From a virus (lineage: Duplodnaviria > Heunggongvirae > Uroviricota > Caudoviricetes): 20,470 nucleotides of DNA. The stretch lies in IMG/VR virus record IMGVR_UViG_2585427735_000017; one strand, written 5' to 3'. The notes below the pieces were generated by a model. The model was not told where the DNA came from. It ran no database searches and saw only the letters and a list, made by a program, of their open reading frames with translations. Of the stretch, positions 1 through 20,470 are shown piece by piece (the first letter of the stretch is position 1; each line of letters begins with the position of its first letter). The position numbers were made by a program, and so were the translations under genes.

Positions 1-1302
1 GGCTGTGGGGTATTTCCAGGGCCTCTCCTTTACCACTCTCGGGAAGGCCCTTTCCCTTCTTGTCGGTAATTTCACAAGTTGTCCCATACTTGCAAGATCG
101 CGCATCAGCTCCGGTATACGTCCCGGTGAAGCGCCCTGCAATGTCATCAGCATTCTCATCACCATTCCGCATGATTCTGAGAAACTCAGTTGATTCGGCC
201 AGTAACCTTTCAGATGTTCCGCCATTTTAATCATCTGATATCTCACCAGATTATAAGCCAGTAAGACACCCCACAGCTCTTGCTCCACAAGCTCCGGCTT
301 TTTACTTCTCAGCGTCAGCCTGCTCCGTTGCATCGTCTGTTTTATCTCCCTGTATCCCAGTTCGATTTCCCAGCGATGACTGTACAGATCCCCCATTTCT
401 CCTCCGGGGAAGCGCATGGCGTCCGTCATCGACGTCAGCAGATGGCAGACTTTTCCTTTGCGCGTCACGGTCAGCAGGCGGGCAGTCACTTCATTTCCCA
501 GTCCCGGCCACTTTTTTCGTGCCTGCGGGCTGGTTTTCAGCTTCACCAGATGATCGCCTTTACCCAGTTTTCTGATCTCTTCATATTGCGCTCCCTTTCT
601 GAGAGGTATCATCCAGTGGCGGTGTTCTCCCGCCAGGCTCCAGGCATTTAACAGTCCCAGTGAGTAATAACCTTTATCCATTAACGTCAGAGTGTTATCG
701 CCGGTTTGTTCTATAAGTTGCTCAGCAAGCTCATTTTCGCTGTTCTTCATCGTGCCGAAGGCTGCAGCCGTCAGCAGATGGCTGGTCAGTTCCATCTGGC
801 AGACCATTTTGACCTGCGGGTAGAGCGCCGGGTTCCCGGCATGTGTCTGGCGGGGGAAGGCTGCATCGTTCTCTGGTGTATCCGGTGTGCGCCAGAACAC
901 ACCATCGATGGCCAGCAGGGTCAGGCCGCACCAGTGCGGATGCGGCGTGGCGTTATGCCAGAGCTGCGCTGTTTTCGTGAACACGCGGCGGACAGCCTCA
1001 CTTCCCAGGCGCTGGCGGGCCTGAATAACGGCACTGGGGGCAACGAAGGGGCGATTGCCCGGCAACATGATGTCCAGGCGATTCACAATCTGGTGAAGAG
1101 GTTCTTTACGCTCAAGCGCCATGCCAACAATACACCAGACCATCATTTCGAGGGGAAGACGGCGCTTGCGTAGCGTTACAGTACCTGATTCGGCAAGGCA
1201 ACGAGAGATGAGTTCGGGGTCGAGGTAATCCCCCAGAGAAGTCAGTGGGTTACGCAGAGAATCGTAACGGGATACCAGATCAAGAGCCTGTCCAATGTGC
1301 AT
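1..1302 (-). CDS. insG: IS4-family DDE transposase (InsG-like), C-terminus truncated by window edge
   Basis: I translated the reverse complement from ATG (complement of 1300-1302) to position 1 by hand: 434 codons with no stop, [30 protein letters not shown]...[16 protein letters not shown]...RPWKYPTA. Absent from the ORF track only because the stop lies outside the window. Confidence 0.9.
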
Positions 1303-1386
1303 AAAAAAATCCGGAAACAAGTGAGCGTTTCCGGATTCTTACACAGCCACTGGATCGGTCAACTGATCCTTAACTGATCGGCATTA
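1..1386 (-). mobile_element. IS4: IS4 insertion sequence, partial (right terminus near 1386; left ~40 bp lies beyond the window start)
   Basis: The - strand encodes a recognisable IS4 transposase; the terminal sequence CCTTAACTGATCGGCATTA at 1368-1386 matches my recollection of the IS4 inverted-repeat end. Full IS4 is about 1.4 kb, so the other end falls just left of position 1. Confidence 0.85.
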
Positions 1387-1468
1387 CTACCTTCGGGTGG
1401 CCTTTTTTATTGCTGCGATCCGGATGGTGAGCAGCGTAACTGTCGGAAGACTTAAACCAGGTACTAAT

Positions 1469-2233
1469 ATGAAACTGAAAACGGTCGAGATTAACGGAAA
1501 ACAATACGCAGAAATTGATACTGCTGGCCTGCCAGTTTATGTGCACGACGATGGTAAAGAAATTGGCTTCGATGCACCGCTGGCGACAAAAAAAATTACA
1601 GAGCTTAATGGCGAGGCAAAAAATCATCGCCTGGCTAAAGAAGCTGCAGAGGAAAAACTGGCTAAGTTTGCCGCTATCGAAGACCCGAAGAAGGCGATCG
1701 AGGCACTGGAAATGCTGTCAAAAATCGACCAGAAAAAGCTGCTCGATGCGGGACAGGTTGACCAGGTTAAGGCAGAAATTACGAAAAATTTTCAGCAGCA
1801 ATTAGATGAAGAAAAGCAACGCTCTCAGATGCTGGAGAAGCAGCTTTACGATTCTATGATTGGCGGTAGTTTTGCGGGTTCAAAATATATTGCCGATAAA
1901 ATTGCGATCCCGGCAGATTTATTACAAGCCCGCTTCGGGCAGGCATTCAAAGTGGAAGAAGGGAGGATCGTTGCTTATGACGCTTCCGGCAACAAAATTT
2001 ATTCCCGCGCGAAGCCTGGCGAACTGGCGCAGTTTGATGAGGCGCTGGAGTTCCTTGTCGAAAATTACCCTCAGAAAGACTACATCCTGAAAGCCAGTGG
2101 CAACAATGGCGGCGGCTCCCGTCCGACACAGCATGATATTGGTCAGAAAACGATGAAACGCTCTGCTTTTGATGCACTGGATGTTGCAGGTAAGCAAAAC
2201 GCATTGAAAGACGGTATCACAATCGTTGATTAA
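1469..2233 (+). CDS. Putative head scaffolding protein
   Basis: Lys/Glu-rich 254 aa ORF (MKLKTVEINGKQYAEI...) directly upstream of the major capsid gene. Function inferred from position and composition only. Start uncertain: ATG 1469 chosen; ATG 1424 and GTG 1397 are in frame, and the open frame runs back into the IS4 end. Confidence 0.55.
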   Translation: MKLKTVEINGKQYAEIDTAGLPVYVHDDGKEIGFDAPLATKKITELNGEAKNHRLAKEAAEEKLAKFAAIEDPKKAIEALEMLSKIDQKKLLDAGQVDQVKAEITKNFQQQLDEEKQRSQMLEKQLYDSMIGGSFAGSKYIADKIAIPADLLQARFGQAFKVEEGRIVAYDASGNKIYSRAKPGELAQFDEALEFLVENYPQKDYILKASGNNGGGSRPTQHDIGQKTMKRSAFDALDVAGKQNALKDGITIVD

Positions 2234-2331
2234 CACATTTGTCAGCTTCCGGATGGGAGCTGGTGTCAGGGCTGGATAGCTCATTACTCCATCTATTCAC
2301 AATTACGCAAATTTTTAAGGAATATTTAATT

Positions 2332-3471
2332 ATGGCTGGAAATACCCTGACCGGGTTGATCCCGACTATTTATACCGCCCTGGATGTTGTATCCCGTGAG
2401 CAGGTAGGTTTTATCCCTGCGGTAGCAAAAAACGCAAAAGCTGACGCCGCAGCAAAAGATCAGACGGTAACCGCGCCAGTTGCGCCTGAGGCGAAAACCG
2501 AAGATATCGTACCGGGGCCGTCAGCTCCGAATACCGGTGATCAAAATATTGGCACTGTTGATGTAAAAATTACTAAATCCAAAATGGCACCGGTTAAATG
2601 GAATGGTGAAGAACAACTGGCTCTTGGCCCTTCAGGGACTTACAACACCATTCTGGCTGATCAGTTCAAGCAGGCTTTTCGCGCCCTTGCAAACGAGGTT
2701 GAGGCTGATCTTGGTGCGTTGTATTTCGGTGCTTCCCGCGCCGTGGGAACCGCAGGGACAACGCCGTTTGGTGTTAAAGATGATCTTTCTGATGCTGCTC
2801 TGGCTCGTCAGGTTCTGGAGGATAACGGCGCACCGACAACCGATCTGCAGATGGTGCTTGGCTCCACTGCCATTGCTAATTTGCGCGGAAAACAGTCTGT
2901 ATTGTTTAAAGTGAATGAATCCGGCACTGAACAGCTACTGCGTGAGGGCGTGTTGGGGCGTCTGGAGGGATTCAATATTCACAGTTCGGCAGGTGTGAAA
3001 CGAGCGCCAAAGGTTGCTGCAACTGGTTATCTCGTGAATGGAGAGAAAAAAGAAGGCGATGTTCTTATTTCCATTGATACTGGTTCGGGGAGTATTTCTG
3101 CAGGTCAGATTGTTACGTTCGCTGGTGATCCGAATCAGTATGTTGTGGCAGCAGCGACCAGCAATCTGATTACTCTTGCAGCGCCCGGACTGCGTCAGGA
3201 TCTGGCCGATGATACTGCCATCACAGTTGTTGGGGCCTTTACGGCAAATATGGCGTTTGATCGCAACGCGTTTCTGCTGGCATCCCGTACTCCGGCAATG
3301 CCGGAAGGTGGCGATAATGCTGATGATGTAATGAATGTTACGGACCCGATTTCAGGGATTACGTTCCAGATTGCACTGTATCGTCAGTATCGCCAGGTGC
3401 GCTATGAAGTTGGACTGGCATGGGGTGTTTCATCAGTGAAGCCGGCACATGGTTGTCTGATTCTTGGTTAA
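2332..3471 (+). CDS. Major capsid protein (family not identified)
   Basis: 379 aa ORF starting MAGNTLTGLIPTIY, with AAGGA ribosome-binding site about 10 nt upstream of ATG 2332, followed by a hairpin terminator; placed between scaffold-like and connector genes. The track start at 2239 has no ribosome-binding site. Confidence 0.7.
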   Translation: MAGNTLTGLIPTIYTALDVVSREQVGFIPAVAKNAKADAAAKDQTVTAPVAPEAKTEDIVPGPSAPNTGDQNIGTVDVKITKSKMAPVKWNGEEQLALGPSGTYNTILADQFKQAFRALANEVEADLGALYFGASRAVGTAGTTPFGVKDDLSDAALARQVLEDNGAPTTDLQMVLGSTAIANLRGKQSVLFKVNESGTEQLLREGVLGRLEGFNIHSSAGVKRAPKVAATGYLVNGEKKEGDVLISIDTGSGSISAGQIVTFAGDPNQYVVAAATSNLITLAAPGLRQDLADDTAITVVGAFTANMAFDRNAFLLASRTPAMPEGGDNADDVMNVTDPISGITFQIALYRQYRQVRYEVGLAWGVSSVKPAHGCLILG

Positions 3472-3481
3472 ACATTCAAAC

Positions 3482-3501
3482 GGGGCTTCGGCCCCATTTT
3501 T
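3482..3501 (+). terminator. Hairpin plus T-run after capsid gene (putative attenuator)
   Basis: GGGGC-TTCG-GCCCC stem-loop (5 bp stem, UUCG tetraloop) followed by ATTTTT, 11 nt after the capsid stop. Confidence 0.45.
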
Positions 3502-3513
3502 AATGGGGGGCAT

Positions 3514-3690
3514 ATGGCCGGATTAACTAAAGAGCAAAGAGCACAGCGTGAAGCCGCACAAAAAACGCAAATTGAGTTAGTGGTTATGGTGACCGATTAT
3601 CAGATGTTTCCCGGCGCACCAACTATCGCTAATGTTCATCCTGATGAAGTTGACAACTGGAAGGCTATGGGCTGGAAAACTCAGGAGTAA
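3514..3690 (+). CDS. Small hypothetical protein (58 aa), below the ORF-track cutoff
   Basis: ATG 3514 preceded by GGGGGG (short 3 nt spacer); translates MAGLTKEQRAQREAAQKTQIELVVMVTDYQMFPGAPTIANVHPDEVDNWKAMGWKTQE; exactly fills the gap between the capsid terminator and the next gene, same strand. Confidence 0.4.
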   Translation: MAGLTKEQRAQREAAQKTQIELVVMVTDYQMFPGAPTIANVHPDEVDNWKAMGWKTQE

Positions 3691-3693
3691 CAC

Positions 3694-4089
3694 ATGATCA
3701 CTTACGTGACCTGTGATGACGTTGATAATGCGTTTGGGAACGCCTGGACGAGTGAGAACGCTAAAAATAAAGCTGTTTTAATGGCTAATGCCTGGCTTAA
3801 TGGCTTCAACCTGAAAATTAACCCATCCCGTATTCCGGAAGAGGTAAAACTTGCGGGAGCATATGCAGCCAGAATTGCCTCATTCGGTAAGTTGTTTCAG
3901 CAGAAAAATGATTCTGGCGTTGTTATCAGTAAAGCCGTGTCGGCTGACGGGGTCAGTGTATCGAAATCATTTTCTGAGTTGCCAGCAAACAGCACTGCAT
4001 TGCTTGAACCCGATTTACAGCTTGCGATAGCACTGCTGAAACCGTACGGACTTAGTCGCTCACAAGTCAGGGTTGTGAGGGGGGGATAA
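3694..4089 (+). CDS. Putative head-tail connector / head completion protein
   Basis: 131 aa ORF with AGGAG ribosome-binding site; first of four small translationally coupled ORFs between capsid and tail tube genes. Function inferred from position. Confidence 0.55.
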   Translation: MITYVTCDDVDNAFGNAWTSENAKNKAVLMANAWLNGFNLKINPSRIPEEVKLAGAYAARIASFGKLFQQKNDSGVVISKAVSADGVSVSKSFSELPANSTALLEPDLQLAIALLKPYGLSRSQVRVVRGG

Positions 4090-4472
4090 TGGGGCTTCGT
4101 GAAGAGATTCAGTCAGAGGTTGCCGCTGCTTTTGATGAGGATTTAACGGACGCCGTGAGTGATTTTTCTGGTTCTTACGTTACGCACCGGCACTGGGATC
4201 CTGTGACGGAAACTGGCGGCGAATCCACCGCAATCTATACCGGGCGAGGCGTGTTGACACGTTATAAGCTGGGCAGAATTGATGGGATTAATATTTTGCA
4301 TGGTGACCTTAAATTAACCGCTCTGGTATGCGAGGTTACGGATAAACCAGCTGTCGACCATATTATTGAGATTTATGATCCTGTATCAAGGCAGTTACAA
4401 CGATACGAGGTAATTACAGCAAGTGTAGATCCTTCCGCATCAGTTTACTCTATCCAGTTAAGGAGAGCGTAA
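4089..4472 (+). CDS. Putative head-tail joining protein
   Basis: 127 aa ORF; start overlaps the upstream stop (TAATG); synteny with head-tail joining genes of siphophages. Confidence 0.55.
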   Translation: MGLREEIQSEVAAAFDEDLTDAVSDFSGSYVTHRHWDPVTETGGESTAIYTGRGVLTRYKLGRIDGINILHGDLKLTALVCEVTDKPAVDHIIEIYDPVSRQLQRYEVITASVDPSASVYSIQLRRA

Positions 4473-4853
4473 ATGGCAAAGGCATGGGATATAGAACCGT
4501 CAATATTTGCCGGGATGATTGAGGAAGATGTAGGGCTGAAGATTCGCTACATCGCTATTCAGATTCTTACTGCTATTGATATTGCTGCTCCGGTTGATAC
4601 CGGACGTTTCAGAAATAACAACCTGGTGTCGTTACAGCATCCCGATTTTGGTATATCTGATAACGTGGATCCGAACGGTACGATTGCTGTTCAGCGTGGG
4701 ATCGGGGTTATTTCGAAAGCTGCAAATTACGGAGTTATTTATATCCAGAATAACCTTCCTTATGCAGAGGCTCTTGAAAACGGTCATTCACAACAAGCGC
4801 CAACTGGCGTGTATGCCAACGCTTTTCATGGTGTTTTACAGGCTTACAAATGA
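4473..4853 (+). CDS. Putative tail completion / neck protein (HK97 gp10-like)
   Basis: 126 aa ORF with AAGGAGAG ribosome-binding site; contains a PVDTGRFRNN motif that I recall as typical of the HK97 gp10 family. From memory, unverified. Confidence 0.6.
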   Translation: MAKAWDIEPSIFAGMIEEDVGLKIRYIAIQILTAIDIAAPVDTGRFRNNNLVSLQHPDFGISDNVDPNGTIAVQRGIGVISKAANYGVIYIQNNLPYAEALENGHSQQAPTGVYANAFHGVLQAYK

Positions 4854-5242
4854 CGTTTACTGAAATCAGAAATACGGTTATTTCCAGAATGACGGCACAG
4901 ACGATTATTGATGGAAAAGACGTATTGTATCCGAACGCGCCAACGTTCGATCCTTCCGGTAAGTTAATCTGGGCGCGGTTAAGTAATATTCCCGGGCAGG
5001 CTGGAGTTAATGAAATTGGCGCGGGGCCGATTGTTTATCGCACGGGGATAATCATTATTCAGTTATTTGTCCCCGCAGGTTCTGGTTCAAAACTCATTAC
5101 TGAGACAGCCGATAAATTGCGGGAACTGTTTGAGTTTCAGGATGACGATCGTCTCAGTTACCAGGCTGTTTCCTCAATAGCCGTTGGCGAAAAGAATGGC
5201 TGGTTCCAGCTTAATCTTCAAATTCCATATCGCGCGCTCTAG
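4850..5242 (+). CDS. Putative tail terminator / tail completion protein
   Basis: 130 aa ORF with ATGA start-stop overlap with the upstream gene; sits immediately before the major tail gene, the lambda U-equivalent position. Confidence 0.55.
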   Translation: MTFTEIRNTVISRMTAQTIIDGKDVLYPNAPTFDPSGKLIWARLSNIPGQAGVNEIGAGPIVYRTGIIIIQLFVPAGSGSKLITETADKLRELFEFQDDDRLSYQAVSSIAVGEKNGWFQLNLQIPYRAL

Positions 5243-5268
5243 CGCAATTAATGACATAGGAGGCTCCT

Positions 5269-6231
5269 GTGAGTTCAGGTGCAAAGGTTATCTCGGCATT
5301 TATCCGGGAGACGGTTGCAGGCACTACGCCAGCAAGTGGTGACTGGAGTTTATTAAAACGCACAAGCTGGGGAGTAAAACCCACCCAGAATAAAGGCGAA
5401 AATAATGAGATTGGTGGCTCCCGGATGGCTCAGGGGGCGACGCCTGGCACTGTGGATGTCGGCGGTGATGTTGGTACCAAATTTCGCTGGGGTCAACATG
5501 ATGATTTTCTTGCATCCTGTTTCGGCGCGGAATGGTCAGGCGATTCTCTGACAATGGGGAATGAGCGAATAACATTTTCTCTGGCGACCTATGCGTCCGA
5601 TGTCGGAATTGCCTCTGTCGTCAGAGGAGCGCAGGTTGGCTCATGGAAAATGCAGATCCCTAACGACGGCGATATTACAGTGACCGTAACCTTTGCCGGA
5701 CTGGACTGGGAATCAAAGGCCGATGATACGAATTTTATCAAAGGCGAACCTGTGGATAGTGCAGGAAAGCTACGTTATTCGTTTAAGGAGGTTTCAGCAG
5801 TAAGCCTGAATGGTGTTGCCGGAGGTAACGGTTTTTGTATCGACAGTTTTGATATTCAGTTCGATAACAAACTCCAGACACAGCGTTGTATCGGGACTGG
5901 CTCGCCTTATGCAGGAGCAAATATTCCGACTACTTTTACACCGTCCGGTACGGTGACGCTTTCATGGTCTAAAGCCGCGTGGGAAATCTGGAGTAAAACA
6001 CTGACTGGAGAAACAGTTCCGTTCAGCTTCACGCTTTCGAATGGAGAGGGGGCATACACTTTCAGTTTCCCGAAGGTTCAGGTGTCAGGTGAATGGCCTG
6101 ATGGGGGTAATAGCGACATTATCCAGGTTCAATTGAGCATTACCGCAGCAGATGAAGCACCTACGATAACCAGAAAAAAAAATTCCCCGGCTGCCGTGAT
6201 CGCAAAAGCCAGTGCTGAGGCGATTAGTTGA
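5269..6231 (+). CDS. Major tail (tube) protein
   Basis: 320 aa ORF with GTG start 5 nt after a TAGGAGG ribosome-binding site; lies between the terminator-like gene and the chaperone pair. Not lambda V-like by recollection. Confidence 0.7.
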   Translation: MSSGAKVISAFIRETVAGTTPASGDWSLLKRTSWGVKPTQNKGENNEIGGSRMAQGATPGTVDVGGDVGTKFRWGQHDDFLASCFGAEWSGDSLTMGNERITFSLATYASDVGIASVVRGAQVGSWKMQIPNDGDITVTVTFAGLDWESKADDTNFIKGEPVDSAGKLRYSFKEVSAVSLNGVAGGNGFCIDSFDIQFDNKLQTQRCIGTGSPYAGANIPTTFTPSGTVTLSWSKAAWEIWSKTLTGETVPFSFTLSNGEGAYTFSFPKVQVSGEWPDGGNSDIIQVQLSITAADEAPTITRKKNSPAAVIAKASAEAIS

Positions 6232-6279
6232 TTTTCCGTTATTCCTCCTGTGGTACTGCCCTACAGGGGGACGCATTGA

Positions 6280-6741
6280 ATGAGGTTATGGATGTTTATT
6301 CTTAATCAGAAAATTATCATTGGTGGAGAACGCTGGTTTACGCCAATGAAGGACTTAAAACCTGTAGACGGGTTAAAACTGTTGGTGGCAAGCAGCGATA
6401 ACGATCAGTATCGCTCCCGTAATGCATTAATCCGTCGCCACATTGAGAAAATGGATGCCAGTTTGCACGTCGGAACGAAGGAGTTTGATATTTCAAAGGT
6501 TTCCGAGGTGGATTCTGTTGATGATTTACTCATTGATAATGCCGCTCGTTATCTGCTGAAAGACTGGAAAGGGGTTGGTGAACTGGTTAATGGTGTTGAG
6601 GTTGCACTGGAATATACGGCAGAACGAGGGATCGCGCTGCTTAAGCAGAATCCAGAGTTGTACTGGCAGATCCTTGCAGAAGCAGCCAGCATCGCCCAGG
6701 GTAAAGAGCAGCAGAAGCAGGATACGATAAAAAAGCCATAG
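6280..6741 (+). CDS. Tail assembly chaperone (lambda G analogue)
   Basis: 153 aa ORF ending 4 nt after an A_AAA_AAG slippery heptamer, with the -1 frame open for a further ~100 codons: the conserved G/GT arrangement. An alternative start at ATG 6345 would give 132 aa. Confidence 0.7.
   Translation: MRLWMFILNQKIIIGGERWFTPMKDLKPVDGLKLLVASSDNDQYRSRNALIRRHIEKMDASLHVGTKEFDISKVSEVDSVDDLLIDNAARYLLKDWKGVGELVNGVEVALEYTAERGIALLKQNPELYWQILAEAASIAQGKEQQKQDTIKKP
6729..6735 (+). promoter_or_regulatory. Candidate programmed -1 ribosomal frameshift site (slippery heptamer A_AAA_AAG)
   Basis: AAAAAAG at 6729-6735 is in the X_XXY_YYZ register of the 6280 ORF (codons AAA AAG), 4 nt before its stop TAG 6739-6741; the -1 frame is open from here to 7049. 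Confidence 0.6.
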
Positions 6742-7049
6742 CTGCCCAGCGGTGGTTATCGGAGTTCGGGGGAGAAAGGGGGGAAAAGGCAAGATGGAAG
6801 CGAGAAAAACTCAGGTTGCCACCGATACCGGAACCAGAAATAGACCCGGTGCTTAAGGAGTTGTTGTACGCCTATTCGGTAATATCCCGTGCCCGACGTT
6901 ATGCTGGAATGGCTGGGGTGCCTTTGCCTTTATCTCTGACAGAGATAAATGAATATTTAGCCACTCATCCGGTATTGATTGAGCGCGATGAATTTGAAGC
7001 AGTGATCTTTGCACTGGATGACCAGTATTTTCAGGAGCAGTGTGTGTAG
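6729..7049 (+). CDS. Tail assembly chaperone C-terminal extension (lambda T analogue), expressed as a G-T fusion by -1 frameshift
   Basis: The -1 frame has no stop from 6735 to TAG 7047-7049. The track ORF 6816..7049 begins at a TTG inside this frame and lacks an independent ATG and ribosome-binding site. Confidence 0.55.
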   Translation, partial: KKAIAAQRWLSEFGGERGEKARWKREKLRLPPIPEPEIDPVLKELLYAYSVISRARRYAGMAGVPLPLSLTEINEYLATHPVLIERDEFEAVIFALDDQYFQEQCV

Positions 7050-7169
7050 TTGTTAATTACGTACACTCTGTTACAGAGATGTGATGGTGTCTTTAATTAA
7101 ATCGATGATGCTCCTGGAGAAAAGCATTGCGTGACCTCGTAATCGCTATATCTACTATTATGTCGCCTG

Positions 7170-7194
7170 AAACCCACTTCGCGGTGGGTTTTTT
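7170..7194 (+). terminator. Rho-independent terminator-like hairpin upstream of the tape measure gene
   Basis: AAACCCAC-TTCGCG-GTGGGTTT stem (8 bp) running into TTTTTTG, about 20 nt before the AGGAG ribosome-binding site and ATG 7215. Confidence 0.5.
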
Positions 7195-7214
7195 GTTGTC
7201 AGGAGTTTTAATAA

Positions 7215-7841
7215 ATGGCAGAGCAAACCTCGCGTCTCGCAATAATTATTGATAGCACTGGAGCGAAAAATAATGCTGACAATCTGACCTCCTCATTAGT
7301 CAAAATGACGCAGGCTGGGGAAACTGCTGCAAATAGCGCAGGGAAAGTGACTAAGGCAACAGAAGATGAGAAGAACGCGCTCGCAAAATTAAAAGCAGCT
7401 ATTGATCCAGTTGGTGCCGCAATTGATACTGTCGGTCGACGCTATTCTGAATTAAAGAAATTTTTCGATAAAGGGCTTATTGATAAAGAAGAATATGAAT
7501 TTCTTGTCCGTAAACTTAATGAAACCACAGAGGAATTGAGCGGGGTTGCGCAAGCGCAGAGAGAAGCCGAGAAGGCCGGAAAACTTGCTGCCGCCCAGCA
7601 GGAAGCGCAGGCTCAGGCCTTTCAAAGAATGCTGGACAAGATCGACCCTCTGGCTGCGGCGCTAAGAAATCTTGAACAACAGCATGATGAACTTAATGCT
7701 GCGTTTGCATCCGGGAAAATAAATGGTTCTCAGTTTGAGAATTATAGCCGAAAAATACAGGAAACACGGCGAGAGCTTACCGGAGAGGCTCAGGCAGAGC
7801 GAGAAGCAGCAAAAGCGCATGATGAAGATGCTTTCTCCTGA
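7215..7841 (+). CDS. Tape measure protein, N-terminal coiled-coil segment (frame A), ends in premature stop
   Basis: 208 aa ORF with AGGAG ribosome-binding site; Ala/Glu/Gln/Lys-rich with repeated heptad-like motifs ([18 protein letters not shown] / [17 protein letters not shown]). Overlaps the main tape measure frame by ~120 nt. Confidence 0.6.
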
Positions 7842-10341
7842 AATGTATGAGGAGCTTTCTGGAAAACTTCGTGCTATGCGGAGTGAGCTTGAGGTTACTC
7901 AATCACAATTAAGCAAAACCGGAATGTCGGCAAAACAAACGGCTTTTGCTATGCGCATGTTGCCTGCACAAATGACGGATATTGTTGTTGGGTTGTCCAC
8001 TGGTCAGTCGCCATTTATGGTGTTAATGCAGCAGGGCGGCCAGCTAAAAGATATGTTCGGTGGGATTGGCCCGGCGATCAAAGGTGTAGGTTCTTATGTG
8101 CTGGGATTAATTAATCCTTTTACCCTGGCCGCAGCAGCCGTTGGGGTCTTAGGACTGGCTTACTATAAAGGCTCTCAGGAGCAGGACGAATTTAATAAAT
8201 CTCTTATTCTTACCGGAAATCAGTTGGGGACAACCAGCGGGCAATTGGGCGATATAGCTCAACGTGCCGGGAATGCGGCTGATTCGACAACTGGTGCTGC
8301 GGCGGCAGTATTAAATCAGCTTGTGCGTTCGGGAAAGGTAGCGAGCAGTTCGCTGGAGCAAGTGACGACAGCGATAGTAAAAACGAGCGAAGTAACAGGA
8401 ATATCAACCGAACAACTGGTTAATGACTTCAATGAAATTGCAAAGGATCCTGTCAGTGCCATATCAAAACTTAATGATCAGTACCATTTTCTGACACTTG
8501 CGACTTATAACCAGATTAAGGCGCTACAGGATGAAGGGAACCAGCAGGAGGCCGCCCGCATTGCGACAGAAGAATACTCATCCTCAATGATCCAGCGCAC
8601 CAACCAGATTAAAGAAAATCTTGGTTATCTTGAGACTGCATGGAAAGCTGTCGCAGACTCCGCAAAATGGGCATGGGATTCCATGCTGGATATTGGCCGT
8701 GAGGCCTCCCTTGATCAAAAAATCTCAGATGTTCTCCGTCAAATTGATGAAATAGAAAAAAATCCCCGACCCGGAGTTTTCGGGTTAGGTGGCATTGGAG
8801 ATGGCGGAGCTCAAAATAAAAGGCTGGCACGATTAAAGCAGCAATTGGGCGTACTTCAAGCAGAAAAAATTGCTCAGGACGTACTAAATTCATCAATAAA
8901 CGATTACAACAAGCGACAACAGGAAGGAATTGAACTCAGACAGAGAGCAGATGCCTTTTCAAAACAATATCAGACCCGGGAGCAGCAGAGAGCTAGTGAA
9001 CTTGCAAAACTGGAAAAGCTAAAGAATCAGTATTCAAAGGAAGAATATAATAATCTTATCGCTCAAATAAATGAGCGTTATAAAGATCCAAAGCAACCAA
9101 AGGCGAAAGGTTATTCTGATGATGCAGCCCAACGAATGATTGATCATCTGAATCAACAGAATGCGTTACTAAGTTCACAAGCTGAGTTGACCGTTAAATT
9201 AAGTTCCTCTGAACAGGAACTGGTTAAGTGGCGTCAGCGGATTGCCGACCTAGAGTCACGACCATCATCGAAATTAACCCAGGATCAGAAATCGCTTCTC
9301 TTCCACCGGGAAGAAATAACCGCGTTGATGGAGAAAAATGTTGCGATTGAAAAGAATAACAGGCTAATCAAGGAATCCGCCGAAATAACAGCATGGCGTG
9401 ATTCATTGCAGGCTTCGATTGATAATCGTCAGCAGGGGTATGATATTCAGATTGCTGGTTATGGGGTTGGCGATAAAAATCAGCAACGCCAGCAGGAATT
9501 ACTGCGGATTGAACATGGATATAACAATCAGCGTCTGCAACTTGAACGTGACTATGCAGATAAATCCCGTGGAATGTCAGATCATGTTTTTCAAGAGAAA
9601 ATGCAGGCTCTGAATGATGCTCTGGAACGGGAAAAAGAAATTGTCAGACAGAAAAACGAGCAACTCGATATTCAGGCAGGAGACTGGGTTAGTGGTGCCT
9701 CCCAGGGATTCAATAACTGGCTGGATGACACTAAGGATATCAGTGAGCAGATAAAATCAACCACGACTCAGATGTTTGATGGGATGACCGATGCGCTGGG
9801 TGATTTTGTCACGACAGGCAAGGCAAATTTTCGTTCTTTCGCTACTTCCGTGATTTCGGATCTTAGTCGAATGGCATTAAAGGCTTCAATTACTGGGATT
9901 TTCGACAGCATTAGTAACAGTTCTTCTGGGGGGATTTTAGGAACTATCGGGAGTGCTATTAGTAAATTTATTCCGAATGCAAAGGGCGGTGTTTATGAGT
10001 CTCCGTCATTGAGCACGTATTCGAACGGTATTTATGATTCCCCGCAATTTTTTGCTTTTGCAAAAGGGGCTGGTGTTTTTGGTGAGTCTGGACCGGAAGC
10101 CATTATGCCATTAACACGAACTTCCGATGGTTCTCTTGGTGTCAGAGCTATTAATAGTAAAAGTGGTAATGGAGGCGGAGATATTACCTATGCCCCTGTA
10201 TACCAAATCACTATTCAAAATGACGGCCAGAATGGAGAGATTGGCCCTCAGGCAATAAAAGCACTTATGGGGATGGTTGATCAGCGGGTGCAGGGCAATC
10301 TGTTAAATATGCGACGTGATGGGGGAATATTAAGTGGCTAA
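7723..10341 (+). CDS. H: Tail length tape measure protein (lambda H-like), main frame B
   Basis: 872 aa ORF; [41 protein letters not shown] and the C-terminal [35 protein letters not shown] match recalled lambda H motifs. ATG 7723 is only the first ATG after a stop in this frame; the true N-terminus is probably the 7215 ORF. Confidence 0.85.
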
Positions 10342-12721: not shown

Positions 12722-16120
<3,399 letters not shown>

Positions 16121-19800: not shown

Positions 19801-19886
19801 GACACACCATCACCGTTAACGCTGCTGGTAACGCGGAAAACACCGTCAAAAACATCGCATTTAACTATATTGTGAGGCTTGCATAA
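16851..19886 (+). CDS. stf: Side tail fibre protein Stf
   Basis: About 1011 aa; N-terminal [30 protein letters not shown], long Ala/Ser/Thr-rich repeat region, tandem KGIVQLSS...ATPKAVKAA repeats, and a C-terminal array of GAHTHS (HxH) motifs ending [12 protein letters not shown], as I recall for lambdoid Stf/StfR. ATG 16851 preferred over the track GTG 16845. Confidence 0.9.
18246..18479 (+). repeat. Tandem 132 nt (44 aa) repeat inside stf (about 1.8 copies)
   Basis: [44 protein letters not shown] followed by [34 protein letters not shown]; the copies start 132 nt apart (18246 and 18378). Confidence 0.7.
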
Positions 19887-20470
19887 TGGCATTCAGAATG
19901 AGTGAACAACCACGGACCATAAAAATTTATAATCTGCTGGCCGGAACTAATGAATTTATTGGTGAAGGTGATGCATATATTCCGCCTCATACAGGTCTGC
20001 CAGCAAACAGTACCGATATTGCACCGCCAGATATTCCGGCAGGCTTCGTGGCTGTTTTCAACAGTGATGAGGCATCGTGGCATCTCGTTGAAGATCATCG
20101 GGGAAAAACCGTCTATGACGTGGCTTCCGGCGACGCGTTATTTATTTCTGAACTTGGCTCGTTACCGGAAAATGTCACCTGGTTATCGCCGGAAGGGGAA
20201 TATCAGAAGTGGAACGGCACAGCCTGGGTGAAGGATACGGAAGCAGAAAAACTGTTCCGGATCCGGGAGGCGGAAGAAACAAAAAACAGCCTGATGCAGG
20301 TAGCCAGTGAGCATATAGCGCCACTTCAGGATGCTGTAGATCTGGAGATCGCAACGGAGGAAGAAACCTCATTGCTGGAAGCCTGGAAAAAATATCGGGT
20401 GTTGCTGAACCGTGTTAATACAACAACTGCACCGGATATTGAATGGCCAACAGTACCCATTATCGAATAG
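19886..20470 (+). CDS. tfa: Tail fibre assembly protein Tfa
   Basis: 194 aa; [79 protein letters not shown]... matches lambda Tfa by recollection; the start overlaps the stf stop (TAATG) and the stop is the last codon of the window. Confidence 0.92.

Follow-up and report, generated by a model that had tools for sequence, protein, structure and literature searches.

The tape measure gene at positions 7215 to 10341 of the window (the whole 20,470-nt stretch of DNA analysed here, IMG/VR record IMGVR_UViG_2585427735_000017) is in our reading a pseudogene, inactivated by a 107-bp deletion in a decaying and most likely non-inducible Rac-like prophage, and we put the probability of this reading at about 0.9. 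Gene-inactivating deletions in cryptic lambdoid prophages are a well-known and ordinary kind of event. The sequence-only reading of this DNA had described a single tape measure gene broken at about 7790–7840 by a lesion that changes the frame; our comparisons with intact homologues of 1077 codons, which span the junction, bear this out as to the single disrupted gene and the position of the break (found at 7826|7827), but not as to the nature of the lesion, which had been taken for a single-nucleotide frameshift and is a clean deletion of 107 bp.

Two frames of one tape measure gene

Two apparently overlapping ORFs lie on the plus strand of this region. ORF A (7215..7841, 208 aa) begins with an ATG preceded by the Shine-Dalgarno motif CAGGAG and ends in a TGA at 7839–7841, while ORF B (7723..10341, 872 aa), which also begins with an ATG, is in the +1 frame relative to it ((7723−7215) mod 3 = 1). 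The ORF list gives exactly the two frames initially described, and both statements made about their starts are correct: the ribosome-binding site at 7215 is present, and frame B has no start context of its own, none of its ATGs at 7723, 7819, 7822, 7828, 7843 and 7876 having an SD-like motif (AGGA, GGAG or GAGG) within the 18 nt upstream. The longer ORF is also lambda H-like as proposed, with matches to the Pfam families TMP_2 (PF06791; 1.4e-82, 276.8 bits, cut-off 30.2), TMP_4 (1.7e-24, 86.2 bits, cut-off 27) and Tape_meas_lam_C (PF09718; 7.2e-28, 96.9 bits, cut-off 23), where domain membership required a score above the Pfam gathering score. The 208-aa fragment taken by itself has only sub-threshold matches in Pfam (TMP_3, E 0.004), and its identity therefore rests on alignment to homologues.

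Translated, 7215..7826 (plus strand) matches residues 1–204 of the tape measure protein (1077 aa) in Salmonella phage SPF_0923, and this native N-terminal part, codons 1–204, aligns without gaps to each of three phage loci (L001, L002 and L003). Frame A then continues into an out-of-frame tail at 7827..7841 (+), consisting of GAT GCT TTC TCC, read as DAFS, and the TGA. The native C-terminal part, codons 241–1077 plus the stop, occupies 7828..10341 (+) in the +1 frame, begins with the ATG at 7828 as native codon 241 and contains the TMP_2, TMP_4 and Tape_meas_lam_C domains. The rest of frame B, 7723..7826 (+; 35 codons from its ATG), is a non-native open stretch of DNA that is read only in frame A in the intact homologues. 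The ORFs thus seem to overlap only through the chance that the wrong frame has no stop codon between 7723 and 7826, and the earlier impression that both frames look protein-like across 7723–7841 must be given up for this accidental part of frame B.

The tape measure protein is encoded by one ORF of 3234 nt in Salmonella phage SPF_0923 (UOX38122.1, 1077 aa), in Escherichia phage vB_EcoS-473R12 (URC09997.1, 1077 aa) and in a prophage of E. coli M8 (WP_073535227.1). All three run continuously through the junction, the point on which the sequence-only reading had suggested a comparison, and share with the window 98.3–99.7% DNA identity over the whole gene, as well as the same start and stop and the same flanking genes; unlike them, the window lacks 107 bp, which divides its gene into an ORF of 208 aa and a remainder in another frame. 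Since close homologues read the region as a single gene, the split is not a chance pattern of ORFs, and on these alignments the two ORFs are two parts of a single tape measure gene. The arrangement that would have spoken against this, a separate N-terminal protein split off at the junction, occurs in none of the homologues inspected. The intact gene has 1077 codons, and no corrected sequence would give the continuous ORF of about 1040 codons that had been anticipated. A functional member of the family has one continuous ORF for the whole ruler, whereas here it is interrupted at 7826|7827; by sequence, then, the gene is classed as a pseudogene of the lambda-H-type tape measure family and not as a functional member.

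Annotations were inspected in three of the 10 phage records recovered by similarity (SPF_0923, vB_EcoS-473R12 and vB_EcoS-885R8). In the partial genome of vB_EcoS-885R8 the tape measure is annotated in two pieces, split much further downstream than the position corresponding to 7826|7827; the region 1501–6234 of this locus (L003, ON470602.1) holds the tape measure and tail tip genes in pieces (e.g. 1501–3999 and 4165–4734). Several deposited partial genomes of induced Rac-like phages similarly have tape measure and tail tip genes in at least two annotated pieces. Such pieces point to further disruptions of the frame, or to errors of sequencing, that have nothing to do with the 107-bp deletion.

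Relative to phage lambda, the family is recognisable but extended. Residues 57–850 of lambda gpH (NP_040595.1, 853 aa) align with residues 270–1077 of the intact homologue at 28% identity over about 800 aa (E 5e-76); TMP_2 and Tape_meas_lam_C are common to both, and as in lambda the gene sits between the G/G-T chaperone genes, with their −1 slippery site, and M-L-K-I-J. The intact family member has in addition an N-terminal extension (its first 270 residues or so, with about 213 aa that lambda H does not have) built of three divergent tandem repeats of about 60–70 aa each (32–38% identity) with the motif [IL]DP...L...G.I....Y....K..E...EL (L001 1501–2310, equivalent to window 7215–7900 plus the deleted 107 bp). 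The deletion takes the first half of the third repeat and leaves the lambda-H-homologous core (aa 270–1077) untouched. In lambda, tail length is reportedly set by the length of the tape measure, a finding credited to Katsura and Hendrix.

The 107-bp deletion

Megablast of 7215–10341 against phage genomes gave 10 records at about 98.3–99.7% identity, in all of which (10/10) the matching stretch is 3234 nt long compared to 3127 nt in the window and the alignment falls into two pieces. Pairwise alignment to the three phage loci places a single 107-nt gap after window base 7826, with no other indel in the gene, and on this basis a single-nucleotide frameshift is rejected. The segment missing at the junction (7826..7827, plus strand) corresponds to L001 2113–2219 (CAGGTTGTTG...AAGCTAAGGG). 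Each breakpoint is unique (0 bp of microhomology), and as the bases on both sides do not let the gap slide, its position is unambiguous. A direct repeat flanking the deleted segment was looked for and not found, and slipped-strand or repeat-mediated deletion is rejected given this and the 0 bp of microhomology; neither kind of feature accounts for its origin.

The loss comprises codons 205–240 minus one base, the last G of codon 240 being kept, and as 107 is not a multiple of 3 everything downstream is read in the +1 frame. Reading now passes through 204 native codons and four out-of-frame codons to the TGA, with 837 native codons remaining beyond. We propose that this one event, between 7826 and 7827, accounts for the split: translation from the native start would yield a 208-aa fragment (204 native residues followed by DAFS) that stops at 7839–7841, the remaining 837 codons would be left with no ribosome-binding site of their own, and no functional tail ruler would be made. 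The deletion is observed directly in the alignments, the consequence for the ruler being deduced from it.

An exact-sequence look-up of the 208-aa product returned three contigs, all of which contain the exact 60-nt junction. The first is NCBI contig JOQC01000002.1 (GCA_000713905.1), which begins 2 nt before the window and whose positions 3–20472 are identical to it; the second, SRR1186690_161 from the Logan assembly of SRR1186690, has 1 mismatch in 9381 nt and begins at the end of the IS4 copy described below; the third, k141_28471 from the ENA metagenome assembly ERZ27246392, has 3 mismatches in 2623 nt. The identical junction in two further assemblies points to a real and inherited allele and not to an error of sequencing or assembly, although the SRR1186690 reads may come from the same isolate or from a sister of it, and independence is therefore owed mainly to the ENA metagenome contig.

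We consider it very unlikely that the organism carries an unbroken gene and that the 107-bp gap was introduced in sequencing or assembly. The source is a 2014-era draft assembly, and absence of the junction from the 5,426 complete E. coli genomes, the GTDB representatives and the JGI metagenomes is in keeping with an artefact; but the same junction recurs in three assemblies made by different pipelines, the metagenome contig, with its 3 differences from the window, representing a non-identical strain, and repeat collapse is improbable as no direct repeat flanks the missing segment. Compared with the prophage of E. coli M8, a relative with 99.5–99.9% identity, the 14.3 kb flanking the junction contain zero other indels (1387–7826 alone aligns with zero gaps and 5 mismatches), which indicates that the assembly is not prone to errors of this kind.

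The tape measure region, searched with a 300-bp query, is carried by 1,070 of the 5,426 complete E. coli genomes. Among the matches listed, all 40 extend in two pieces over 407 bp where the query has 300 bp, which means that these genomes carry the extra 107 bp. They include ynaA (tmpR) of the E. coli K-12 Rac prophage, a member of the same gene family that matches the 300 bp around the junction region with 100% identity and, in contrast to the window, keeps the 107 bp. The K-12 gene is another case of a tape measure gene decaying in a cryptic prophage, its copy presumably being truncated elsewhere than at the junction found here. The junction itself, as a 60-mer, was found in 0 of the 5,426 complete E. 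coli genomes and, as a 40-mer, neither in the GTDB species representatives nor in the JGI metagenomes. The deletion allele is rare, and its junction could serve as a lineage marker.

Expression of the split gene

A further explanation, which we hold to be highly improbable, is that the split gene works. Ribosomes that terminate at the TGA at 7839–7841 would reinitiate at the ATG at 7843 or 7828 and make a protein of 832 or 837 aa, roughly the size of lambda H (853 aa), which, alone or together with the 208-aa fragment, could build a shorter tail. It would fit this idea that the TGA and an in-frame ATG are only 1 nt apart (TGAAATG, 7839–7845) and that the deletion falls within the approximately 213-aa repeat extension, outside the part shared with lambda H. 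However, every frame-B ATG is without an SD, and the allele is rare and was conserved in no other genome in the searches of complete E. coli genomes, GTDB and JGI; with J truncated as well (see below), no infectious particle would be expected in any case. It also speaks against a working split gene that in phage TP901-1, where tail length is set by the length of the tape measure protein, the N-terminal 154 residues of this protein are essential, infectivity being abolished by N-terminal deletions (PMC5099701).

Going by the close spacing of stop and start, some reinitiation may occur, and a C-terminal product of 832 aa could be made at a low level. A deletion allele that is still alive, whether through reinitiation at TGAAATG to yield a lambda-H-sized tape measure free of the repeat extension and a shorter tail, or through a separate role for the 208-aa coiled-coil fragment, strikes us as a very faint prospect; if true, nature would here have tried out the modular shortening of a tape measure.

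Programmed frameshifting of the usual kind is predicted upstream, in the tail assembly chaperone pair (6280..7049, plus strand). This comprises a G-like (YdaY) ORF at 6280–6741, whose product belongs to Pfam Phage_YdaY, and a T-like frame open to 7049, with a weak match to Phage_TAC_18. A canonical A_AAA_AAG slippery heptamer at 6729–6735 in the G-like ORF is phased so that a −1 slip would lead into the T-like frame and produce a G-T-like fusion of 249 aa. This chaperone frameshift is distinct from the split of the tape measure gene. Joining of the two tape measure frames by transcriptional slippage or a programmed +1 (or −2) ribosomal frameshift, on the model of the G-T pair 1.1 kb upstream, might be suggested by that genuine −1 site and by the overlap of two open frames at 7723–7841, but is effectively refuted: 7723–7841 has neither an X_XXY_YYZ heptamer nor any homopolymer exceeding A5, those inspected homologues in which the gene is uninterrupted at the junction use a single frame, the change of frame falls precisely at a deletion of a length not divisible by 3, and the two-frame arrangement is not conserved, homologues carrying the 107 bp and 0 of 5,426 complete E. 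coli genomes having the junction.

The T-like frame is separated from the tape measure start by an unusual non-coding spacer of 165 nt (7050–7214), whereas in lambda T and H overlap. The spacer contains a strong terminator-like hairpin of 10 pairs followed by a T-run (7169..7192, plus strand), directly before the tape measure SD, which may have a role in attenuation of tail gene transcription.

A defective Rac-like prophage

From position 1387 onward the window is 97–99% identical throughout to E. coli Rac-like prophages and, judged by identity and gene order, it represents the tail module of an E. coli Rac-like lambdoid prophage. A scaffold gene, a P22-type major capsid gene, head-tail joining genes, the tail terminator and the tail tube are followed by the YdaY/G-like chaperone, the T-like frame and the tape measure, and then by M, L, K, I, J, Lom, the side tail fibre and Tfa.

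The pseudogene reading of the tape measure is consistent with further inactivating lesions in the same element, in J and at the IS4 copy. The tail tip/host specificity gene J (12725..16120, plus strand) is itself a pseudogene, with 1-nt deletions at about 15700–15704, at 15938 and at 15952, scored relative to both close alleles and none of the three lying in a homopolymer. They put about 80 codons out of frame and create a stop at 15776–15778, and the product has 1017 aa instead of 1132–1137. J also looks recombinant, agreeing with the allele of E. coli M8 as far as about 15704 and with a Combat11I9-like allele beyond that point; for the stretch with the deletions, no complete E. coli genome exceeded 97.5% identity. 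The IS4 copy (1..1386, minus strand; 99.3–99.6% identity), the transposase gene of which runs off the start of the window, adjoins the prophage within the spacer that immediately precedes the scaffold (DUF6651) gene, beside the head genes.

With J frameshifted and IS4 beside the head genes, the prophage is most likely a decaying, non-inducible remnant. It is a reasonable inference that no functional tape measure, and hence no tails, would be produced, although this consequence is largely moot in view of the same two lesions. Together with the tape measure deletion they mark the Rac-like prophage as defective, which is relevant only to predicting phage release by the strain. For annotation, both ORFs should be recorded as one tape measure pseudogene with a 107-bp deletion, and not as two proteins or as a candidate programmed frameshift.

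An Rfam scan of the window gave no match near the tape measure gene, its sole match being a full-model hit to IS009 (RF02111; 225 bits) at 20229–20427 on the plus strand, inside the tail fibre assembly (tfa-like) ORF that starts at 19886.
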